A stretch of DNA of 64,000 nt, taken from contig JAMPXO010000012.1 of NCBI GenBank assembly GCA_023701125.1, positions 2,130-66,129 on the forward strand, written 5' to 3'. Shown here one piece after another: positions 519-64,000 of the stretch. Source of the stretch: Vicinamibacteria bacterium. GTDB taxonomy: Bacteria > Acidobacteriota > Vicinamibacteria > Fen-336. A program made the translations under genes and the position numbers. The notes below the pieces were generated by a model. That model searched no databases and was not told the origin of the DNA. It worked only from the letters and a program-made list of their open reading frames with translations. Position 1 is the first letter of the stretch. The number at the start of each line of letters is the position of its first letter.

Positions 519-3316
<2,798 letters not shown>

Positions 3317-3320
<4 letters not shown>

Positions 3321-3898
3321 GCGTGATCGCTGCCCTCGGCGAGCGCCGCGGCCTGGCGACCCTGGCGCTGGTCCTGGTCGTGCTCGACCAGTGGACGAAG
3401 AGCCTGGTGGTGGCCCGCCTGCGCCTGCACGAGAGCGCCGAGGTGATCGCCGGTTTCGTCGACCTGACCCACGTCCGCAACCGCGGCGGCGCCTTCGGCT
3501 TCCTGGCCGACGCCAACCTGCCGATGCAGCCGCTGTGGTTCGGCGCCATCGGCGTGGTCGCCACCTGCGCCATCGCCTGGTACTCGCTGCGCACGCCGAT
3601 GACCGAGCGGATCGTGCAGTGGGCGCTGGCGCTGGTGCTGTCGGGCGCCGTCGGCAACCTGATCGACCGCGCCCGCTTCGGCTACGTGATCGACTTCGTC
3701 GACGTCTACTGGGGGCCGCACCACTGGCCGGCCTTCAACGTCGCCGACTCGGCGATCACCGTCGGCGTGGTGCTGCTGGTGATCGACATGCTGCGCCGGC
3801 CCGACGAGGAGCCGGCACCTTCCCCGGACCAACCCGCCTCCGCGGGCCCCGGCGCCGCCGATGGCGGCAGCCCGCGGGTCGCGGCGGCCGCGGAGTAG
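3317..3898 (+). CDS. lspA: Lipoprotein signal peptidase II
   Basis: [13 protein letters not shown]...DQWTKSLV...NRGGAFGF...NLIDR...VIDFVD...[12 protein letters not shown] overlap with the ileS stop. ileS-lspA is a classical conserved pair. Confidence 0.93.

Positions 3899-15659: not shown

Positions 15660-15682
<23 letters not shown>
15521..15682. repeat. Tandem direct repeat: two identical 79-nt units (15521-15599, 15604-15682) separated by AAGC
   Basis: Read directly. Each unit contains a GGGGGC...GCCCCC hairpin and a CCGGCGCCGGA-TTCAC-TCCGGCGTCGG hairpin. The second unit supplies the last 7 codons and stop of metH (GQVPTPE*). Confidence 0.9.
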
Positions 15683-19367
<3,685 letters not shown>

Positions 19368-19453
19368 GGCAACGCGATTCTAGCGTCCGGCGCGTGCACG
19401 GCCCGCAGCTATGACGCGCGGGGATCGCCGGCGCTCGTGGCATTCTAGGGGTC

Positions 19454-19873
19454 GTGATCCGCGCCTGCCCCCGCTGCCAGCGACCGAACCGCGTGCCCGC
19501 CCGCCATCTCGCCGACGAGGGCCGGTGCGGAGCCTGTCAGGCGGCGCTGCCGGCGCTCGACGCTCCCGTCGAGGTCGATGCCGCGCTGTTCGACGAGATC
19601 GTCGATGGCGCGGTCGTGCCCGTGCTGGCCGATTTCTGGGCCGCGTGGTGCGCGCCGTGCCGCGCCGCTGCGCCCGAGGTGGCGGCGGCCGCCAGGCAGA
19701 TGGCCGGGCGCGCGATCGTCGTCAAGGTCGACACCGAGCGTGAGCAGGCGCTGGCCGCCCGCTTCGGCGTCTCGGGCATCCCCCACTTCGTCGTGTTCCA
19801 GGGGGGCCAGTCGGTGCGCGGCCGGTCCGGCTACCGCTCGCGTGGAGAACTCGCGACCTTCACCCTCGGCTGA
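19454..19873 (+). CDS. trxC: Thioredoxin 2-type thioredoxin with N-terminal Zn-finger
   Basis: CPRC...CGAC zinc-finger followed by the WAAWCAPC active site. GTG start. Confidence 0.9.
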   Translation: MIRACPRCQRPNRVPARHLADEGRCGACQAALPALDAPVEVDAALFDEIVDGAVVPVLADFWAAWCAPCRAAAPEVAAAARQMAGRAIVVKVDTEREQALAARFGVSGIPHFVVFQGGQSVRGRSGYRSRGELATFTLG

Positions 19874-19879
19874 GGCCTC

Positions 19880-20341
19880 TCAGCGCGTCCGGCTCCAGGT
19901 CCACTCCATCGCCTTCTCCTTGGCGTCGGGCGGCCCCTCCACCCGCGCGTGAAGCCGGCCGACGGCGTCGAGCCAGTACAGGATGCGCTGCGGGAAGTCG
20001 TGCTCCTCGTTCTCGAACACCGCGCGGTTCGCGCCCGACTCGACGAGCCGGAACGGCGTGGGCGCCGCGCCCCGGGGACTCGCCCAGTAGGTGATCACGC
20101 CGTCCTTGTCGTCGATGCGCAGGAACTCCCACGATACGGTGCGCCCGCGCGCCACGTCCCTGTGCAACCCGAGCAGGGTGCCGCCGGCGGGAGCCGTCCA
20201 GACCTCTTCCATGCGCAGGGCGCCGCTCTCCCCGCTCCAGGCTCCGGCGAGGAAAGACAGCGCTTCCAGGCCGTCTGCGGCGGCCGGAACGCCCAGCGCG
20301 AGCAGGGCCCACGCGATACCACCGAGCACCGTTCGTCTCAT
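19880..20341 (-). CDS. Secreted DUF6265-like protein
   Basis: The signal peptide begins at MRRTVLGGIAWALLALGVPAAA, the internal ATG at 20341. The block LAGAWSGE...MEEVW...GGTLLG...FLRI matches my memory of DUF6265. Confidence 0.65.
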   Translation of the reverse strand: MRRTVLGGIAWALLALGVPAAADGLEALSFLAGAWSGESGALRMEEVWTAPAGGTLLGLHRDVARGRTVSWEFLRIDDKDGVITYWASPRGAAPTPFRLVESGANRAVFENEEHDFPQRILYWLDAVGRLHARVEGPPDAKEKAMEWTWSRTR

Positions 20342-20478
20342 CGGGACCTCCACGGCCGAGCGCCCCGGGCGCAGCCGGTCGCGGGAGTCTGGGGCCCGCC
20401 CCGACGGCGCGCAAGCGGTGCGTCGCCGAACGACCGGCACGGGCATTGCACTGCGACAGGCCGACCCGGAGGTGGCTC

Positions 20479-20717: not shown

Positions 20718-20816
20718 TGGCGGAAGCGTGTGGGAATCGAACCCACCGCCGAGGGTTTCACCCCCCGGCCGGACGGCTTTGAAGGCCGCGCGAGTCACCA
20801 GACCCGATTCGCTTCC
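20718..20816 (-). tRNA. selC: tRNA-Sec (anticodon UCA)
   Basis: 99 nt: GGAAGCGAAUCGGGUCUGGUGACUCGCGCGGCCUUCAAAGCCGUCCGGCCGGGGGGUGAAACCCUCGGCGGUGGGUUCGAUUCCCACACGCUUCCGCCA. It has a long acceptor stem, a 6-bp D-stem with a 4-nt loop, a CUUCAAA anticodon loop, a long 7-bp variable arm, GGUUCGAUUCC, discriminator G and an encoded CCA. The layout parallels E. coli selC. Confidence 0.9.
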
Positions 20817-20934: not shown

Positions 20935-21179
20935 CCGGTTCGTGCGATGTTCCTCCCCGAGCCGACGCCAGCCAGGCCCTGAGGACCCACGCGGTCTGCC
21001 CACGGGGGCGCGTCATCCCGCCCCGGCTGCCGAGGCTCTCTTTCTCCTCCGTCCATTCCTTCCAAGCGCGGGGAGGTGGCCGCAGGGCCGCTTCCCCGCT
21101 CCGGGCCTTCCGACCCTTCAAGATCCTGCCCGGCTTCTGAGTGCCAATCGAACGTTATGATCGGCCGCCTGAGGCCCCG

Positions 21180-22124
21180 ATGAACCAGCGAGCGCGGAAC
21201 GAAGCGGACCCCGGGGCGCGCCTGTCGATCGGCGCGCTCTCGCGGGCGACGGGGGTGCCCGTCGAGACCCTGCGCACCTGGGAGGCGCGCTACGGCTTCC
21301 CGGTGCCGGAGCGCAAGCCGTCCGGGCATCGCGTGTACCCGACGACGTCGATCCCGCGCCTGCTCCGCATCGCCGAAGCGCTGGCCCGCGGACACCGCGC
21401 GGGACAGGTGGTCGCCGCCTCCGACTCCGACCTCGACGAGTTGCTGCTGGTGACGCCACCGGCACTGCCGGCGCCGGCAGCGCCGGCCCCGGCGATGCGC
21501 AGCACGGAAGTCCTGCTCGACCACGTCGAGCGCTTCGACGCCGACCGCCTGACCCGGGCCCTGCTCGGCGAGTGGGCACGCCGCGAGCCCGTCGACTTCC
21601 TCGTGCAGGTGATCGCGCCGCTGGTGCGGGCGGTCGGCCTGGCCTGGGAGGAGCGCCGGCTCGAGGTGCGCCACGAGCACTTCTTGTCGGAGCGCGTCGG
21701 CGACCTGTTGCGCTCGCTGCGGCTGCCGCTCGAGGAGCGGGCGCGCGGGCCGCTGGTCGTGCTCGGCTCGCTGCCCGGCGAGAGCCACGGGCTCGGGCTG
21801 CAGATGGTGGCACTGGTGCTGGCCGCGGCCGGCTGCCGGCTGCTCTACCTCGGCACGGAGGTGCCGCCCGACCAGATCGCCGCCCTGGCCCGCGACCTCG
21901 GCGCTCGCGCGCTCGGCCTCAGCATCTCGGCCGCGACCGGCGGCGCCGCGTCGAACGCCCAGTTGCGCCGGCTGCGGGCCGCCCTGCCCCGCCGCATCCA
22001 GTTGCTGGTCGGCGGCGCGGGCGCGCCGAAGAAGAGCGAAGGCATCGAGGTCATCACCGATCTGGCGGTGCTCGACGCCTGGGCGCGGCAGCGCGTGGCC
22101 CGCTCGGAGCTGCGGCCGAGCTGA
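21180..22124 (+). CDS. CarH/LitR-type MerR-family regulator with an adenosylcobalamin-binding photosensory domain
   Basis: N-terminal MerR HTH (LSIGALSRATGVPVETLRTWEARYGFP), then W-x9-EH (AWEERRLEVRHEHF) and the B12-binding ExHxxG...SxS...GG pattern (GESHGLG, GLSIS, LLVGGAG). Confidence 0.85.
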   Translation: MNQRARNEADPGARLSIGALSRATGVPVETLRTWEARYGFPVPERKPSGHRVYPTTSIPRLLRIAEALARGHRAGQVVAASDSDLDELLLVTPPALPAPAAPAPAMRSTEVLLDHVERFDADRLTRALLGEWARREPVDFLVQVIAPLVRAVGLAWEERRLEVRHEHFLSERVGDLLRSLRLPLEERARGPLVVLGSLPGESHGLGLQMVALVLAAAGCRLLYLGTEVPPDQIAALARDLGARALGLSISAATGGAASNAQLRRLRAALPRRIQLLVGGAGAPKKSEGIEVITDLAVLDAWARQRVARSELRPS

Positions 22125-27743: not shown

Positions 27744-28148
27744 TCAGTTCCGCTTCAGCTCGCGCACGAACACCCACGCCGTCTCCGTGGTCTTGCTGTA
27801 GAACAGCGTCACCGTCACGTCGCGCGGCGCCATCTCGAAGTCGAAGCGGTAGGGAAAGACCTCGTGCAGGTCGCCGACCTTCACGCCCTCGCGGAACTTG
27901 CCGGCGAAGCGCTGCACGTTGGTGCACGGGGCAACGTCGGTGAAGAAGTTCTTGCCGATCACCCGCTTCGGGTCGCGGCCCGTCAGCGTCGCCTCGTGCT
28001 GGTTGAAGCTCAGCACGGTGCCGTTCTTGTCGAGCCGGATGGCCCCGATCGGCAGCGCGTCCAGCTCGCTCTCCTTGAGATGGTCGATGCGCTCCATCTC
28101 GGTCCGGGTCAGGAAGCTCTCGGCCGACTCGTTCACCTGGTTCATCAC
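27744..28148 (-). CDS. pyp: Photoactive yellow protein (PAS-fold, p-coumaric acid chromophore)
   Basis: It aligns end to end with Halorhodospira PYP: GAIRLDKNGTVLSFNQHEATLTGRDPKRVIGKNFFTDVAPCT...FDFEM...WVFV. Cys69, Glu46, Thr50, Arg52 and Met100 equivalents are present. The Tyr42 equivalent is Phe. Confidence 0.9.
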   Translation of the reverse strand: MMNQVNESAESFLTRTEMERIDHLKESELDALPIGAIRLDKNGTVLSFNQHEATLTGRDPKRVIGKNFFTDVAPCTNVQRFAGKFREGVKVGDLHEVFPYRFDFEMAPRDVTVTLFYSKTTETAWVFVRELKRN

Positions 28149-28335
28149 TTGCGTTCTCTCCTCTTCGCGTCCCGCTCACCCAGTTCGCGCACGCCTGCAC
28201 GGCACGGGGAGGAGTCTAAGCGCGGATTCCTGCGCTCTCTTAAATCTGCTCAAATCTTCACATTAATTTAAACAAGACCGCGGCCAGGCACGCCGGCCGT
28301 GCGGCGCCGCTATACTCCGCGGCCTGGAGGAGCGA

Positions 28336-59941: not shown

Positions 59942-60577
59942 CTACTTCGCGGCGAGCTTCGCGGCTTCGTCAGGGGTGGTCTGCGAGCGGGCGGGGCTCT
60001 TTCCGAACCAGCGCATCGGAGGGATCGGCCGGCCGGCCGCGCAGCTCTCGATCAAGATCGCCAGGCGCTTCTCGCGCGTGTCTTCCTTCTTTGCGCTCAT
60101 CACCCACTGCTTCGCGGCGGCGCGGTACGAGGGCGCCTGCGCCTGAAAGTACTTCCACGCCGCCTCGTCCGCGCGCAGCGCCTTCAGCCCCGCGGCGCTC
60201 AGCTCGATGGAGTGACGCTGCTCATACGAATACGGCCCTGCCTGGACCTTGCTCCGTCGCTCGTACGCGCGCAGCCCGGACGGCTGCATGCGCCGCTGGG
60301 CGATCAGCTCCTTCACGCGCTTCAGGTTCACGGCGCTCCAGTGGCTGCTCGGCTTGCGCGGAGTGAAACGAATCGTGTAGCTCTCCTCGCCGAGGCTCGT
60401 CCGCACCCCGTCGATCCAGCCGTAACACAGGGCCTCGTCGACCGACTGGGGCCAGGTGAGGCTCGGCTTGCCGGTCTTGGCCTTGTGGAAGCCGACCAGC
60501 AGCTCGCTGTGGGTGTCGTGATGCGCCTCGAGCCAGGCGCCGAACTGCGCGGGAGTGGCGAAGAACCGCGGTTTCAT
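59942..60577 (-). CDS. YdeI/OmpD-associated family protein
   Basis: FATPAQFGAWLEAHH...ELLVGFHK...EALCYGWIDG is the typical YdeI (DUF1801-related) N-terminus. ATGA overlap with the upstream peroxiredoxin stop. Confidence 0.8.
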   Translation of the reverse strand: MKPRFFATPAQFGAWLEAHHDTHSELLVGFHKAKTGKPSLTWPQSVDEALCYGWIDGVRTSLGEESYTIRFTPRKPSSHWSAVNLKRVKELIAQRRMQPSGLRAYERRSKVQAGPYSYEQRHSIELSAAGLKALRADEAAWKYFQAQAPSYRAAAKQWVMSAKKEDTREKRLAILIESCAAGRPIPPMRWFGKSPARSQTTPDEAAKLAAK

Positions 60578-61086
60578 GGCAGCCCCAGCGCGGCGAGCTT
60601 CGCGGCGATGTCGTTGCCCGCGGAGCTCGTCTTCACGTCCTTGTCGACGAACAGGATTCGGCCGTCGGCGCCGATGTAGAACGTCCAGCGCTTCGCCACG
60701 CCGACCAGCGGCATCAACACCCCGTACGCCTTCGCGACCTGCTTGTCGGGGTCGGACAGGATCGGGTAGTCGAGGCCGAGCGAACGCGCGAACTCCGCGT
60801 TCTTCTGCGGCGGGTCGACGCTGGCGGCGAAGTGGACGACGTCGAATGCCCGGATCTTCTCGCCGCTCTCACGGAGCGACTTGCACTCCCGCGTTCAACC
60901 CGAAGTCGCCGCCTTCGGGAACCAGGCCAGGACGACGGCCTTGCCGCGCAGCGCGGCCAGCGTGTGGGAGCGGCCGTCCGAGCCGACCAGGGTGAAGTCG
61001 GGGGCGGCGTCGCCCGGCTTCAGGTCGGCGCCCGAAGCCGTCCACGACGCCAGCAGCGACAGACCGATGCTGGCCGGGTTCCGCAT
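60574..61086 (-). CDS. Secreted BCP/AhpC-TSA-type peroxiredoxin with selenocysteine (TGA 60895-60897) at the peroxidatic position
   Basis: My translation across the TGA: ...GKAVVLAWFPKAATSG-U-TRECKSLRESGEKIRAFDVVHFAASVDPPQKNAEFARSLGLDYPILSDPDKQVAKAYGV...RWTFYIGADGRI... The TGA aligns with Cys of the F/YPKA.T.GCT.E Prx motif. The reading frame, GC3 and family similarity all continue for 106 codons after it. Confidence 0.8.
60870..60893 (-). promoter_or_regulatory. Candidate bacterial SECIS hairpin
   Basis: Minus-strand RNA immediately 3' of the UGA: A-CGCGGGAGUG[CAAGU]CGCUCCGUG. This gives about 9 bp including G.U pairs and one bulged G. The apical loop carries GU 15-16 nt after the UGA. Confidence 0.4.
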
Positions 61087-61218
61087 CTTCAACAGGCCCT
61101 CCGCTAGACGACGCTCGATTGTCCCGCCGCCGCCCCACGACCACAAGGCGCGCGGCCCGCCACTCGCACGGCGCGCGGGAGTAGGATCACTAGGTTTTTC
61201 GACAGCGGGGCCCGCCCG

Positions 61219-63171
61219 ATGGAACCTCTTGATCCACCCCTCGACTACACCGCGGTCGGCCTCATCTCGGGCCTGGAGGTGCACCAGCAGCTCCTGACCG
61301 AGCGGAAGCTGTTCTGCCACTGTCCCGCCGGGCGCTACACCCGCACGCACGACGGCACGGTGCTGCGCCACATGCGGCCGACGCTCTCGGAGCTGGGCGT
61401 CTACGACGGCACGGCGCTGATGGAGTTCAAGACCAAGAAGCACATCGTCTACCTCCTCAACCGCGCCAACACCTGCACCTACGAGATGGACGACACGCCG
61501 CCCTTCCCCGTCAACCAGGCGGCGATCGATGTGGCGATCGAGCAGTGCCTGATGCTCGGCTGCGACATCGTCGACGAGGTCCACATCGCGCGGAAGCAGT
61601 ACCTCGACGGCTCGATCCCCACCGGCTTCCAGCGCACCGCGATCGTCGGCGTCAACGGCCAGCTCCCGTTCCGCGGCCGCCACCTCTCGATCACCCAGGT
61701 CAGCGTGGAAGAGGACTCGTGCCGCGAGGTCTCCGACCGCGGCCACCTGATCGTGTGGCGCACCGACCGCCTCGGCATGCCGCTGATCGAGACGGTCACC
61801 GGGCCCGACCTGCGCACGCCGGACGAGGTCGAAGAGGCGATCCTGCTGGTCGGCCGCGTGTGCCGCTCGACCGGCCACGTCCGAGTCGGCATGGGCGCCA
61901 GCCGCCAGGACGTCAACGTGTCGGTCCGCGGCGGCCGGCGGGTCGAGATCAAGGGCGTGCCGCAGGCGGGCTGGGCGCCGCGGCTCGTCCACGGCGAGGC
62001 GTGGCGCCAGGTCAACCTGCTGCGCCTGCGCGACGAGTTGCACGGCCGCGGCTTCCGCGCGGCCGCCGACCTCCGGGTCGAGACGGCCGATGTCACGGCA
62101 CTCGCGGCCGTGTCCCGCCTCGCCCCGCTGTGCGCGGAGAACTGGGAGGCGTTCGTGCGCGGCCAGAGCCGGCGGCCGGACTTCGAGCTCGGCCCGGGCC
62201 CCTTCCGCGTGCTCGCCGTGCGCCTCGTCGGCCTGGCCGGCACGCTCGCCTGGCCGACCCAGCCGCGGCGCACGTTTGCCGACGAGCTGAAGGGCCGCGT
62301 GCGAGTGATCGCCGGCCTCGACCAGGCGCCGATCCTGTTCCACTCCGAGGACTGGCCGCCCGCTGCCGCGGACGAGCTGGCGCCGCTGCGGGCTGCGGCC
62401 GGTTGCGGCGAACGCGACGGGCTGGTCGTCGTCTGGGGGCCGGAGCGCGACGTGCGCACCGCCGCGGACGAGATCCGGCTCCGCTACGTGGACGCCACCG
62501 ACGGCGTGCCGAACGAGACGCGGCAGCCGTTCGTCGACGGCTCGACCGACTTCGAGCGCATCCTGCCGGGGCCGGACCGGATGTACCCGGACACCGACTC
62601 CCCGCCCACCCGCGTCACCCGCGAGCGCGTCGACGGCCTGCGCACGACCCTGCCCGAGCGCCCGTGGGAACGCGAGAGCCGGTACGCGACGGCGGGCGTG
62701 CCGATCCACGTCGCCCACTACCTGATCCGCCGCGGCGGGGCTGCGCTCGTGGACCGCGTCGTCGACGAGGCCGGCGCGGACCTGCGCTTCACCGCCTTCT
62801 TCTTCGGCGAGCGGCTCAAGGGCCTGCGCCGCGCCGGCGTCGATGTCGACGCGGTCGCCGCCGACGCGTGGGTTGCGCTGTTCCACGCCATCGCCGCCCG
62901 ACCCGAGCTGCGTGAGGCCTGGGCACCACTGGCCCGGCGGATGGCGGCCGGCGAAGCGCTCGACGCCGTGCTCGGCGAGTTCACCGCGCAGGTCGACTGG
63001 CGAGCGGGGCTCGCGGAGTGGATGCAGGCGGCGGAGCGCGAGGCCTACGACGGCAACCGAGACCGCCTGCTGCGCCACGCGACGGGCAAGGCGATGGACG
63101 CCCTGCGCGGTCGCGTCTTCGCGGGGCTGGTGACCGAGGCCGTGAGAGCGGCCGTGGAGGCGAAGGCATGA
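61219..63171 (+). CDS. gatE: Glu-tRNA(Gln) amidotransferase subunit E (archaeal-type GatE)
   Basis: GLEVHQQL...KLFCHC, RPTLSELG, EMDDTPPFP and the GatE-specific ARKQYLDGSIPTGFQRT (GatB has RKNYFYPDLPKGYQISQ). 650 aa with a GatB/YqeY-like tail. Confidence 0.88.
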   Translation: MEPLDPPLDYTAVGLISGLEVHQQLLTERKLFCHCPAGRYTRTHDGTVLRHMRPTLSELGVYDGTALMEFKTKKHIVYLLNRANTCTYEMDDTPPFPVNQAAIDVAIEQCLMLGCDIVDEVHIARKQYLDGSIPTGFQRTAIVGVNGQLPFRGRHLSITQVSVEEDSCREVSDRGHLIVWRTDRLGMPLIETVTGPDLRTPDEVEEAILLVGRVCRSTGHVRVGMGASRQDVNVSVRGGRRVEIKGVPQAGWAPRLVHGEAWRQVNLLRLRDELHGRGFRAAADLRVETADVTALAAVSRLAPLCAENWEAFVRGQSRRPDFELGPGPFRVLAVRLVGLAGTLAWPTQPRRTFADELKGRVRVIAGLDQAPILFHSEDWPPAAADELAPLRAAAGCGERDGLVVVWGPERDVRTAADEIRLRYVDATDGVPNETRQPFVDGSTDFERILPGPDRMYPDTDSPPTRVTRERVDGLRTTLPERPWERESRYATAGVPIHVAHYLIRRGGAALVDRVVDEAGADLRFTAFFFGERLKGLRRAGVDVDAVAADAWVALFHAIAARPELREAWAPLARRMAAGEALDAVLGEFTAQVDWRAGLAEWMQAAEREAYDGNRDRLLRHATGKAMDALRGRVFAGLVTEAVRAAVEAKA

Positions 63172-64000
63172 ACGCCCCCGATCCGCTCAAGGGCTACCGG
63201 GGCCGGGCGCGGGCCCGGCTCGAGGGCTTCGGCGTCCGCGTGTGGAGCGACGTGGTGGCCACCAACGACGCGGGCAGCGCCTTCGAGGGCGTGATCCTGC
63301 CCCGCTCCGAGTCGGCCGACGACGAGCACGTCGTGCTCAAGCTGAAGACCGGCTACAACGTCGGCCTCCACGTCGACCGCCTGCGCTCGATGCGCGAGAT
63401 CGGCTACAAGGAAGCGATCTACAAGATCCCGGAGCAGGAGTTCCCCTCGCGGCCGCACCTGCCGAAGGTGACCCTGCTCGGCACCGGCGGCACCATCGCT
63501 TCGCGGCTCGACTACCGCACCGGCGCGGTGATCCCCGCGTTCACGCCGGGCGAGCTGTACGGCGCTGTGCCCGAGCTGGCCGATCTCGCCAACCTGACCA
63601 CGAAGAAGCTGTTCGGCGTGTTCTCCGAGAACATGGCCAAGCCGCAGTACGTCGAGCTGGCCGAGGCCATCGGCCGCGAGATCGCGGAGGGCGTCGACGG
63701 TATCGTGATCGGCCACGGCACCGACACCATGGGCCACACGGCCGCGATCCTCTCGTTCATGGTCCAGGACACACCGGTGCCGATCGTGATGGTCGGCTCG
63801 CAGCGCTCGAGCGATCGCCCCTCGAGCGATGCCGCGTTGAACCTGATCCACGCGGTGCGAGCGGCGGGCCGCGGCCGGATCGCCGAGGTCCAGATCTGCA
63901 TGTTCGGCCCGACCTCGGACCAGTACGCGCTGCTCCACCGCGGCACCCGCTGCCGCAAGATGCACAGCTCCTACCGCTCGACGTTCCGCACCCTCGGCGG
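63168..64000 (+). CDS. gatD: Glu-tRNA(Gln) amidotransferase subunit D (archaeal-type GatD, asparaginase-like), 3'-truncated by the window
   Basis: My own translation: GatD N-domain, then the asparaginase motifs LLGTGGTIAS and GHGTDTM. ATGA overlap with the gatE stop. It is absent from the ORF track because it has no stop in the window. Confidence 0.88.
   Translation, partial: MNAPDPLKGYRGRARARLEGFGVRVWSDVVATNDAGSAFEGVILPRSESADDEHVVLKLKTGYNVGLHVDRLRSMREIGYKEAIYKIPEQEFPSRPHLPKVTLLGTGGTIASRLDYRTGAVIPAFTPGELYGAVPELADLANLTTKKLFGVFSENMAKPQYVELAEAIGREIAEGVDGIVIGHGTDTMGHTAAILSFMVQDTPVPIVMVGSQRSSDRPSSDAALNLIHAVRAAGRGRIAEVQICMFGPTSDQYALLHRGTRCRKMHSSYRSTFRTLG

Follow-up and report, generated by a model that had tools for sequence, protein, structure and literature searches.

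A predicted selenocysteine-containing peroxiredoxin gene with a conserved coding-region hairpin in a Vicinamibacteria genome

Results and Discussion

The peroxiredoxin gene and its in-frame TGA

The DNA analyzed here, hereafter the window, is a stretch of 64,000 nt from a Vicinamibacteria bacterium (assembly GCA_023701125.1, contig JAMPXO010000012.1) with a GC content of 72%, and all positions given below are window positions. Its minus strand carries a peroxiredoxin (Prx) gene whose reading frame is interrupted by a TGA at codon 64 and which very probably encodes a selenocysteine (Sec) enzyme (Table 1). Read through this codon, the strand from 61086 to 60574 gives MRNPAS...FPKAATSG*TRECKSLRESGEKIRAFDVV...AALGLP*, i.e., 63 codons, the TGA, 106 further sense codons and the stop. 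An earlier note on this DNA had described the in-frame TGA followed by 106 more codons of AhpC/TSA sequence, a terminal TGA overlapping the ATG of a ydeI gene, and a second Cys four residues past the internal TGA; translation and the Pfam search bore out the first of these, and the overlap (ATGA at 60574-60577) and the Cys (C68) were found as described.

Automated annotation does not return the gene in one piece. In the list of open reading frames (ORFs), a minus-strand ORF stops at the TGA (...VVLAWFPKAATSG) and is entered as 60895-63078 because no stop interrupts its frame for a long way 5' of the ATG at 61086, and the 3' half is represented by just a 48-aa ORF initiated at GTG (60574-60720). 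The same ATG was also picked by the gene callers in two public assemblies, where the called product has 63 aa. The G+C content of third codon positions (GC3), the coding signature of a genome with 72% GC, is 0.94 on the 5' side of the TGA and 0.95 on the 3' side, which argues that the halves on both sides are coding, and a screen of all TGA triplets in the window for a two-sided coding signal gave the codon 64 TGA as the sole case in 64 kb. The TGA recurs in other assemblies: in the Logan assembly (SRR23907158) the locus is 100% identical, with TGA at codon 64, and in the Joint Genome Institute (JGI) metagenome assembly 3300037810, from a different sample, 3 of 1608 bases differ (99.8% identity) and codon 64 is again TGA.

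Codon 64 among homologues

The homologue scan, limited to one genome per species (GTDB), returned 80 homologous loci from Acidobacteriota, Verrucomicrobiota, Planctomycetota, Myxococcota and others. At the position of the window TGA, 52 of them have TGA, 24 have TGC and 4 have TGT, so that the Cys/Sec column for which the earlier note had proposed to look among Cys-bearing Prx/BCP homologues was indeed found (52 TGA against 28 TGC or TGT). Loci with TGA belong to Acidobacteriota (Vicinamibacterales, Holophagales, 'Marinacidobacterales', Bryobacteraceae), Verrucomicrobiota, Planctomycetota and one metagenome-assembled genome (MAG) of Myxococcales. The tblastn matches continue across the TGA. 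Compared with 47 Sec homologues, the window protein has a mean identity of 0.68 in the part before Sec and of 0.59 in the part after it; both halves of the gene are under protein-level constraint. Sec and Cys forms are interleaved in a neighbor-joining tree, which points to several conversions between the two.

Among the 108 top protein-database homologues matching the WFP motif pattern, W stands at the codon-64 column in 11 and Cys in the remainder. The W is the product of a gene caller that translated TGA with an alternative code. Entries of this kind include P0002-P0008 and P0015, which are JGI metagenome predictions, selenoproteins stored with a wrong residue.

In 'Marinacidobacterales' the Sec-peroxiredoxin gene was also observed inside a cassette of about 745 bp, present in several copies per genome that are 98.5-99.9% identical and have mostly unrelated flanks (loci L010, L017 and L019 in OZ253507.1, L009 and L014 in OZ250169.1; about 2794-3537 in each). 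These repeats suggest that the selenoprotein gene was recently duplicated or has moved.

Protein family and active site

For the protein searches a Cys was put at codon 64 of the read-through product. It matched Pfam AhpC-TSA (PF00578) with 104.7 bits against a gathering score of 26 (E 4.1e-30; profile positions 1-121 of 124), as well as Pfam Redoxin (E 1.8e-20). The best matches among solved structures (PDB) were 2ywn (3.6e-19), 5epf (1e-16) and Mycobacterium tuberculosis AhpE, 1xvw (1e-15), and in all three printed alignments codon 64 falls on the peroxidatic Cys, within the motif F(Y/F)P-A-(F/M)-T-x-x-C-(T/Q)-x-E. In the alignment of 76 unique family sequences, where the codon-64 column was written as C, this column, P57, T61 and R133 are invariant (76/76), and C68, four residues after Sec, is a candidate resolving Cys.

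The protein had previously been called BCP-type, a designation that holds loosely in view of the PDB matches and fails on closer criteria. The nearest NCBIfam model, the BCP equivalog NF006960, scored 79 bits and thus below its cut-off of 140, and the second Cys lies at +4 (U-T-R-E-C), whereas it lies at +5 in the PDB alignments of 2ywn and 5epf and in the CxxxxC arrangement by which BCP/PrxQ proteins are recognized (resolving Cys at +5, in helix alpha2). The PrxU model NF040737 gave 38.9 bits against a cut-off of 270. By its sequence, the predicted protein is BCP/PrxQ-like and no BCP equivalog.

The hairpin downstream of the UGA and the tRNA for selenocysteine

A hairpin of the selenocysteine insertion sequence (SECIS) type follows the UGA within the coding region, with its 5' arm at 60880-60874, its loop at 60873-60869 and its 3' arm at 60868-60862. 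Every Sec-form gene carries this hairpin, GUCGCUC-CGUGA/C-GAGCGGC, the 5' arm starting 14 nt past the UGA, in the window as elsewhere; the stem-loop that had been placed 1 nt past the UGA corresponds to the non-conserved outer pairs of one minimum-free-energy fold and does not describe the conserved element. Pairing is kept in 95.9% of cells over 38 distinct sequences, in the loop, G26 and G28 (the U of UGA being position 1) do not vary and U27 is kept to at least 90%, and compensatory changes were seen twice, from C-G to U-A (L058) and from C-G to G-C (L050).

As the element hardly varies, its covariation is thin, and a measure based on synonymous sites was used instead. At codons +4 to +11, the use of the same codon given the same amino acid reached 0.86-1.00 in 45 unique Sec genes, as compared to 0.34-0.69 in 27 Cys-form genes and to about 0.3-0.8, mostly 0.3-0.6, in the codons on either side. 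That synonymous sites are frozen in Sec genes alone argues for a selection acting at the RNA level and tied to the presence of the TGA.

A covariance model, a check that had been suggested for the region near 60860-60897, was built from 37 sequences, all from other genomes and none from the window, and returned 68.1 bits at exactly 60897-60850(-); the second-best score in the 64 kb was 12.1 bits. At the homologous site of Cys-form loci the same Sec-derived model gave 9-42 bits. The highest of these values belongs to L044, a Planctomycetaceae MAG locus (3145-3192) with TGC at the codon and a partly decayed hairpin (GUCGCUC-CGCGA-GAACGGC), probably a recent Sec-to-Cys conversion in which the hairpin is decaying.

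In the SECIS of Escherichia coli fdhF, the corresponding loop nucleotides are, in the same numbering, G23 and U24. The window hairpin resembles that element in lying within the coding sequence close behind the UGA and in having a small apical loop with G-U (G26/U27), but its loop lies one codon farther from the UGA and its upper stem has no bulged U. Pairs of TGA and Cys codons, together with a hairpin whose small apical loop contains G, have been used as criteria for selenoprotein genes (PMC1088965), and both are found in the window gene.

The tRNA-Sec gene that had been reported at 20718-20816 was confirmed by ARAGORN and by Rfam family RF01852. It adjoins no sel gene; its neighbors are a Trx2-type thioredoxin gene (19415-19873, +), a DUF6265 gene (19880-20446, -) and a gene for a MerR/B12-binding regulator resembling CarH (21141-22124, +), with metH (15660-19367, -) just past this neighborhood.

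Table 1. Positions of the peroxiredoxin gene, its elements and the other features discussed
Feature	Position	Strand	Basis or remark
Predicted Sec-peroxiredoxin coding sequence, complete	61086-60574	-	170 sense codons plus stop; Sec is codon 64
Shine-Dalgarno-like GGAGGG	61097-61102	-	10 nt 5' of the ATG at 61086; read from sequence
Codons 1-20, MRNPASIGLSLLASWTASGA, signal-peptide-like extension	61027-61086	-	Basic n-region, hydrophobic core, small-x-small SGA end
In-frame UGA, codon 64	60895-60897	-	Peroxidatic position, P57-x3-T61-x2-U64
UGA plus SECIS segment, covariance model match	60850-60897	-	68.1 bits, E 1.8e-15
Cys68 codon TGC, candidate resolving Cys	60883-60885	-	Cys in 75/76 unique family members
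SECIS-type hairpin GUCGCUC-CGUGA-GAGCGGC	60862-60880	-	7 bp; loop of 5 nt, its G-U-G conserved; -9.6 kcal/mol
Arg133 codon, conserved peroxiredoxin active-site Arg (KRWTF)	60688-60690	-	76/76; aligns to the Arg of akRavF in 2ywn
tRNA-Sec gene (selC), anticodon UCA	20718-20816	-	ARAGORN; Rfam RF01852 71.9 bits vs. gathering score 47
OmdA/YdeI-family gene	59942-60577	-	Pfam OmdA 2.3e-15; ATG overlaps the Prx stop, ATGA 60574-60577
GatE gene, divergent upstream neighbor	61219-63171	+	TIGR00134 gatE_arch 377.7 bits vs. cut-off 319.55
Asparaginase-like GatD start, TLLGTGGTIAS	about 63250-64000	+	3' of GatE

Selenocysteine insertion and its alternatives

With TGA and Cys codons alternating in one column, the peroxidatic Cys of PDB structures aligned to that column, a hairpin specific to the Sec forms, a tRNA-Sec gene and the TGA repeated in a second assembly, the gene at 61086-60574(-) is very probably a genuine Sec-peroxiredoxin gene and not a pseudogene, as the earlier note had held. 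Comparison with the homologues shows UGA 64 as the predicted Sec codon, which would be served by the coding-region SECIS hairpin and the genomic tRNA-Sec. Several results nevertheless weigh against this conclusion. The genes selA, selB and selD were not found within the 64-kb window (about 40 ORFs searched with Pfam, plus inspection of the gaps), an absence that says little, as the window is a fraction of the genome. Rfam, run with permissive thresholds on 60780-60960, returned no SECIS family and chance hits only, and a longer fold, extended to take in the UGA, does not stand out from shuffled sequence (z = -0.99; an equally good fold in 33 of 200 shuffles). A 7-bp hairpin is found 8-20 nt downstream of about 10% of all TGA triplets in the window, and the covariation amounts to 2 events and is sparse. 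Folding energy, which was considered as SECIS evidence, was dropped, since it matches that of shuffles and such folds are common near TGA in this GC-rich window; the hairpin acquires its meaning through the comparative evidence alone, its energy being not exceptional in this DNA.

A Cys-peroxiredoxin recently inactivated by a TGC to TGA nonsense mutation, of which a 63-residue fragment or nothing would be made, could account for the gene callers of two public assemblies ending the product at the TGA, and would fit the lack of sel genes among the window genes; yet 52 loci of several phyla have retained the same TGA, the coding signal on the 3' side is intact (GC3 0.95, 59% mean identity to Sec homologues), the catalytic Arg133 encoded there is invariant, the hairpin is particular to TGA genes and conserved at synonymous sites, and a tRNA-Sec gene is present, all of which make a pseudogene very improbable. 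An error of sequencing or assembly that hides a true TGC or TGT, for which a difference of one base would suffice, is hardly conceivable when the JGI assembly of another sample (3/1608 differences) and the Logan assembly both have TGA and related genomes carry TGA at this codon. It is likewise highly improbable that the UGA is read through as Trp or Cys, by near-cognate decoding, a suppressor or a reassigned code, with the hairpin as a mere stimulator of read-through. Some database entries do give W for the homologous TGA, but TGA is the usual stop in the window, where it ends most ORFs of high GC3, so that the code is not reassigned; besides, the column alternates with Cys alone, at the catalytic redox Cys, a dedicated tRNA-Sec is encoded, and Trp at the peroxidatic position would, in this family, leave the enzyme dead. 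Even taken jointly, pseudogene, sequencing error and read-through without Sec remain improbable.

For the Sec-peroxiredoxin, the proposed course of events starts with SelB-GTP-Sec-tRNA(Sec), its tRNA coming from the gene at 20718-20816, which would meet the ribosome at the UGA (60897-60895). SelB, whose binding we infer from the paradigm of E. coli fdhF, would be tethered to the hairpin (60880-60862), with the GU-containing apical loop 22-23 nt past the UGA, and Sec would be inserted with no termination. In the finished enzyme, the selenolate of U64, with T61 and R133 of the PxxxTxxU pocket as its activators, would reduce H2O2 or an organic hydroperoxide and turn into selenenic acid, which C68 would probably resolve into an intramolecular selenenylsulfide, and a thioredoxin-fold reductant would recycle the enzyme. 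This U64/C68 peroxidase chemistry is modeled on the mechanism of the family.

Cellular location

The N-terminus reads MRNPASIGLSLLASWTASGA and then DLKPGD, and resembles a signal peptide of the Sec pathway. In 112 of 118 homologues the mature start LKxGDxAPxF is preceded by 15 aa or more (median 25 aa), with a small-x-small end and a core of strong hydrophobicity, and most homologues show an n/h/c organization and A-x-A ends; the cytoplasmic BCPs matched in PDB begin directly at the mature motif. The earlier suggestion that a signal-peptide-like N-terminus indicates export is plausible in view of the family-wide occurrence of the extension. The accompanying remark, by which an exported selenoprotein would be unusual in bacteria, was overstated. 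E. coli FdnG, a periplasmic formate dehydrogenase exported through Tat, is a selenoprotein. On balance, the extension favors, with moderate confidence, an enzyme exported to the cell envelope; it would work there with a reductant of the TlpA/DsbD type, as does the Cys enzyme PprX of Caulobacter, a mechanism in which we place the same moderate confidence.

Against export stand the hydrophobic core of the window protein, IGLSLLA, which is short and weak, with a maximum Kyte-Doolittle value over 9 residues (a heuristic) of 1.94 as compared to a homologue median of 2.68, and the fact that no periplasmic reductant gene is linked, no conserved partner having been found around the 80 related loci. 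Both would fit a cytoplasmic Sec-peroxiredoxin, in which the extension is no cleaved signal peptide and ordinary thioredoxin recycles the enzyme, and so would the Trx2-like gene in the window at 19415-19873. We regard this alternative as doubtful, if far from negligible: the extension is a trait of the family with canonical n/h/c organization and A-x-A ends in most homologues, the PDB-matched cytoplasmic BCPs have no counterpart of it before their mature motif, and an exported BCP/PrxQ has been demonstrated experimentally (PMC3322552). The latter, C. crescentus PprX (CC1673), is a periplasmic Prx of the BCP/PrxQ type with a signal sequence of 20 aa, and is reduced by TlpA with electrons from ScsB or DsbD (PMC3322552). 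Likened to the window protein by description only, it may serve as a functional model for an envelope peroxidase, but it is a Cys enzyme and has its resolving Cys at another place. A search of the literature on exported or periplasmic Sec-peroxiredoxins found no paper describing one that bears a signal peptide.

Relation to known selenoperoxiredoxins

Peroxiredoxins of the PF00578 family with the TxxU site and the motif PxxxTxxU figure as a bacterial selenoprotein family in the table of a 2026 review (PMC13188914). Twelve Sec-Prx members were known in 2006, three of them in Anaeromyxobacter (PMC1794560), and 91 members from 78 organisms had been listed by 2016 (PMC5029168); a Sec-peroxiredoxin has been purified from Eubacterium acidaminophilum, according to Sohling et al. 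(2001) as cited in that review (PMC13188914). The window gene belongs to this established family, which is listed in the catalogues of Zhang and Gladyshev and whose members are alike in fold and have Sec in place of the peroxidatic Cys in PxxxTxxU, relatives with Cys, and a hairpin in the coding region past the UGA. The catalogued members include those of high-GC Anaeromyxobacter. The clade of the window protein carries signal-like N-termini, has the spacing U-x3-C and is dominant in Acidobacteriota MAGs; in the Sec-Prx catalogue literature that was searched, signal peptides and Acidobacteriota Prx members are not mentioned.

PrxU of E. acidaminophilum and clostridia (NF040737), which is experimentally known, shares with the window protein the Sec at the peroxidatic site but represents another Prx subfamily, its model having a length of 233 residues as compared to 170 in the window protein. 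The best relatives are found among BCP/PrxQ proteins (E. coli Bcp, NF006960; 2ywn and 5epf; AhpE 1xvw) with E values from 1e-15 to 4e-19. BCP/PrxQ and AhpE have in common with the window protein the active site of PxxxTxxC and Arg and a small monomer size, whereas the window protein differs from BCP/PrxQ by Sec instead of Cys, the signal-like extension at the N-terminus and the second Cys at +4.

It is possible, although we put it forward tentatively, that the homologues form a large undescribed clade of exported envelope selenoperoxiredoxins, characterized by a signal peptide, PxxxTxxU-x3-C, a nearly invariant SECIS, an occurrence in Acidobacteriota, Verrucomicrobiota, Planctomycetota and Myxococcota, and repeated switching between Sec and Cys. 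If this holds, its members would be the bacterial counterparts of extracellular GPx, being routed through the Sec translocon and undergoing a periplasmic recycling of the DsbD/TlpA type. Export would place a selenol-based peroxidase in the oxidizing envelope, where the resistance of Sec to irreversible over-oxidation would be a clear advantage, and would raise the question of which periplasmic reductant recycles a Sec-peroxiredoxin. Standard gene callers deliver either a 63-aa stub with the catalytic half lost or a protein with the TGA as Trp; an antioxidant selenoenzyme widespread in soil and marine Acidobacteriota would therefore be missing or garbled in databases. The 48-nt signature of UGA plus SECIS finds such genes specifically (68 bits vs. 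at most 42 for Cys forms), and the predicted gene shows a Vicinamibacteria genome to use the Sec-decoding trait. The current understanding of selenoproteins is not overturned by these results, of which the probable envelope location, the U-x3-C spacing, the SECIS nearly invariant across phyla and the wide distribution in Acidobacteriota are of secondary interest.

Neighboring genes and host

The overlap of the Prx stop with the start of the ydeI-like gene suggests that the two are probably co-transcribed and translationally coupled, and it may be speculated that ydeI expression depends on successful Sec insertion upstream. When the window YdeI, GatE and tricorn proteins were used in tblastn at the 80 related loci, YdeI and GatE were without match, and the linkage of Prx and ydeI is therefore lineage-specific as regards YdeI; all-against-all clustering of the ORFs around these loci likewise gave lineage-specific synteny only and no conserved partner.

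GatDE is usually regarded as archaeal. Proteins labeled as coming from Vicinamibacteria MAGs share 84% identity with the window GatE, and at 70-85% identity there are homologues whose labels point to MAGs of Vicinamibacteria, Acidobacteria and Planctomycetes. The window also encodes Lgt and an O/P-type porin, and together with the kinship of GatE these indicate that the host is a diderm Acidobacteriota of the class Vicinamibacteria. Elsewhere in the window, a 143-aa ORF (27744-28175, -; GC3 0.95) resembles, as recognized by eye only, photoactive yellow protein, including the motif around the chromophore-binding Cys.

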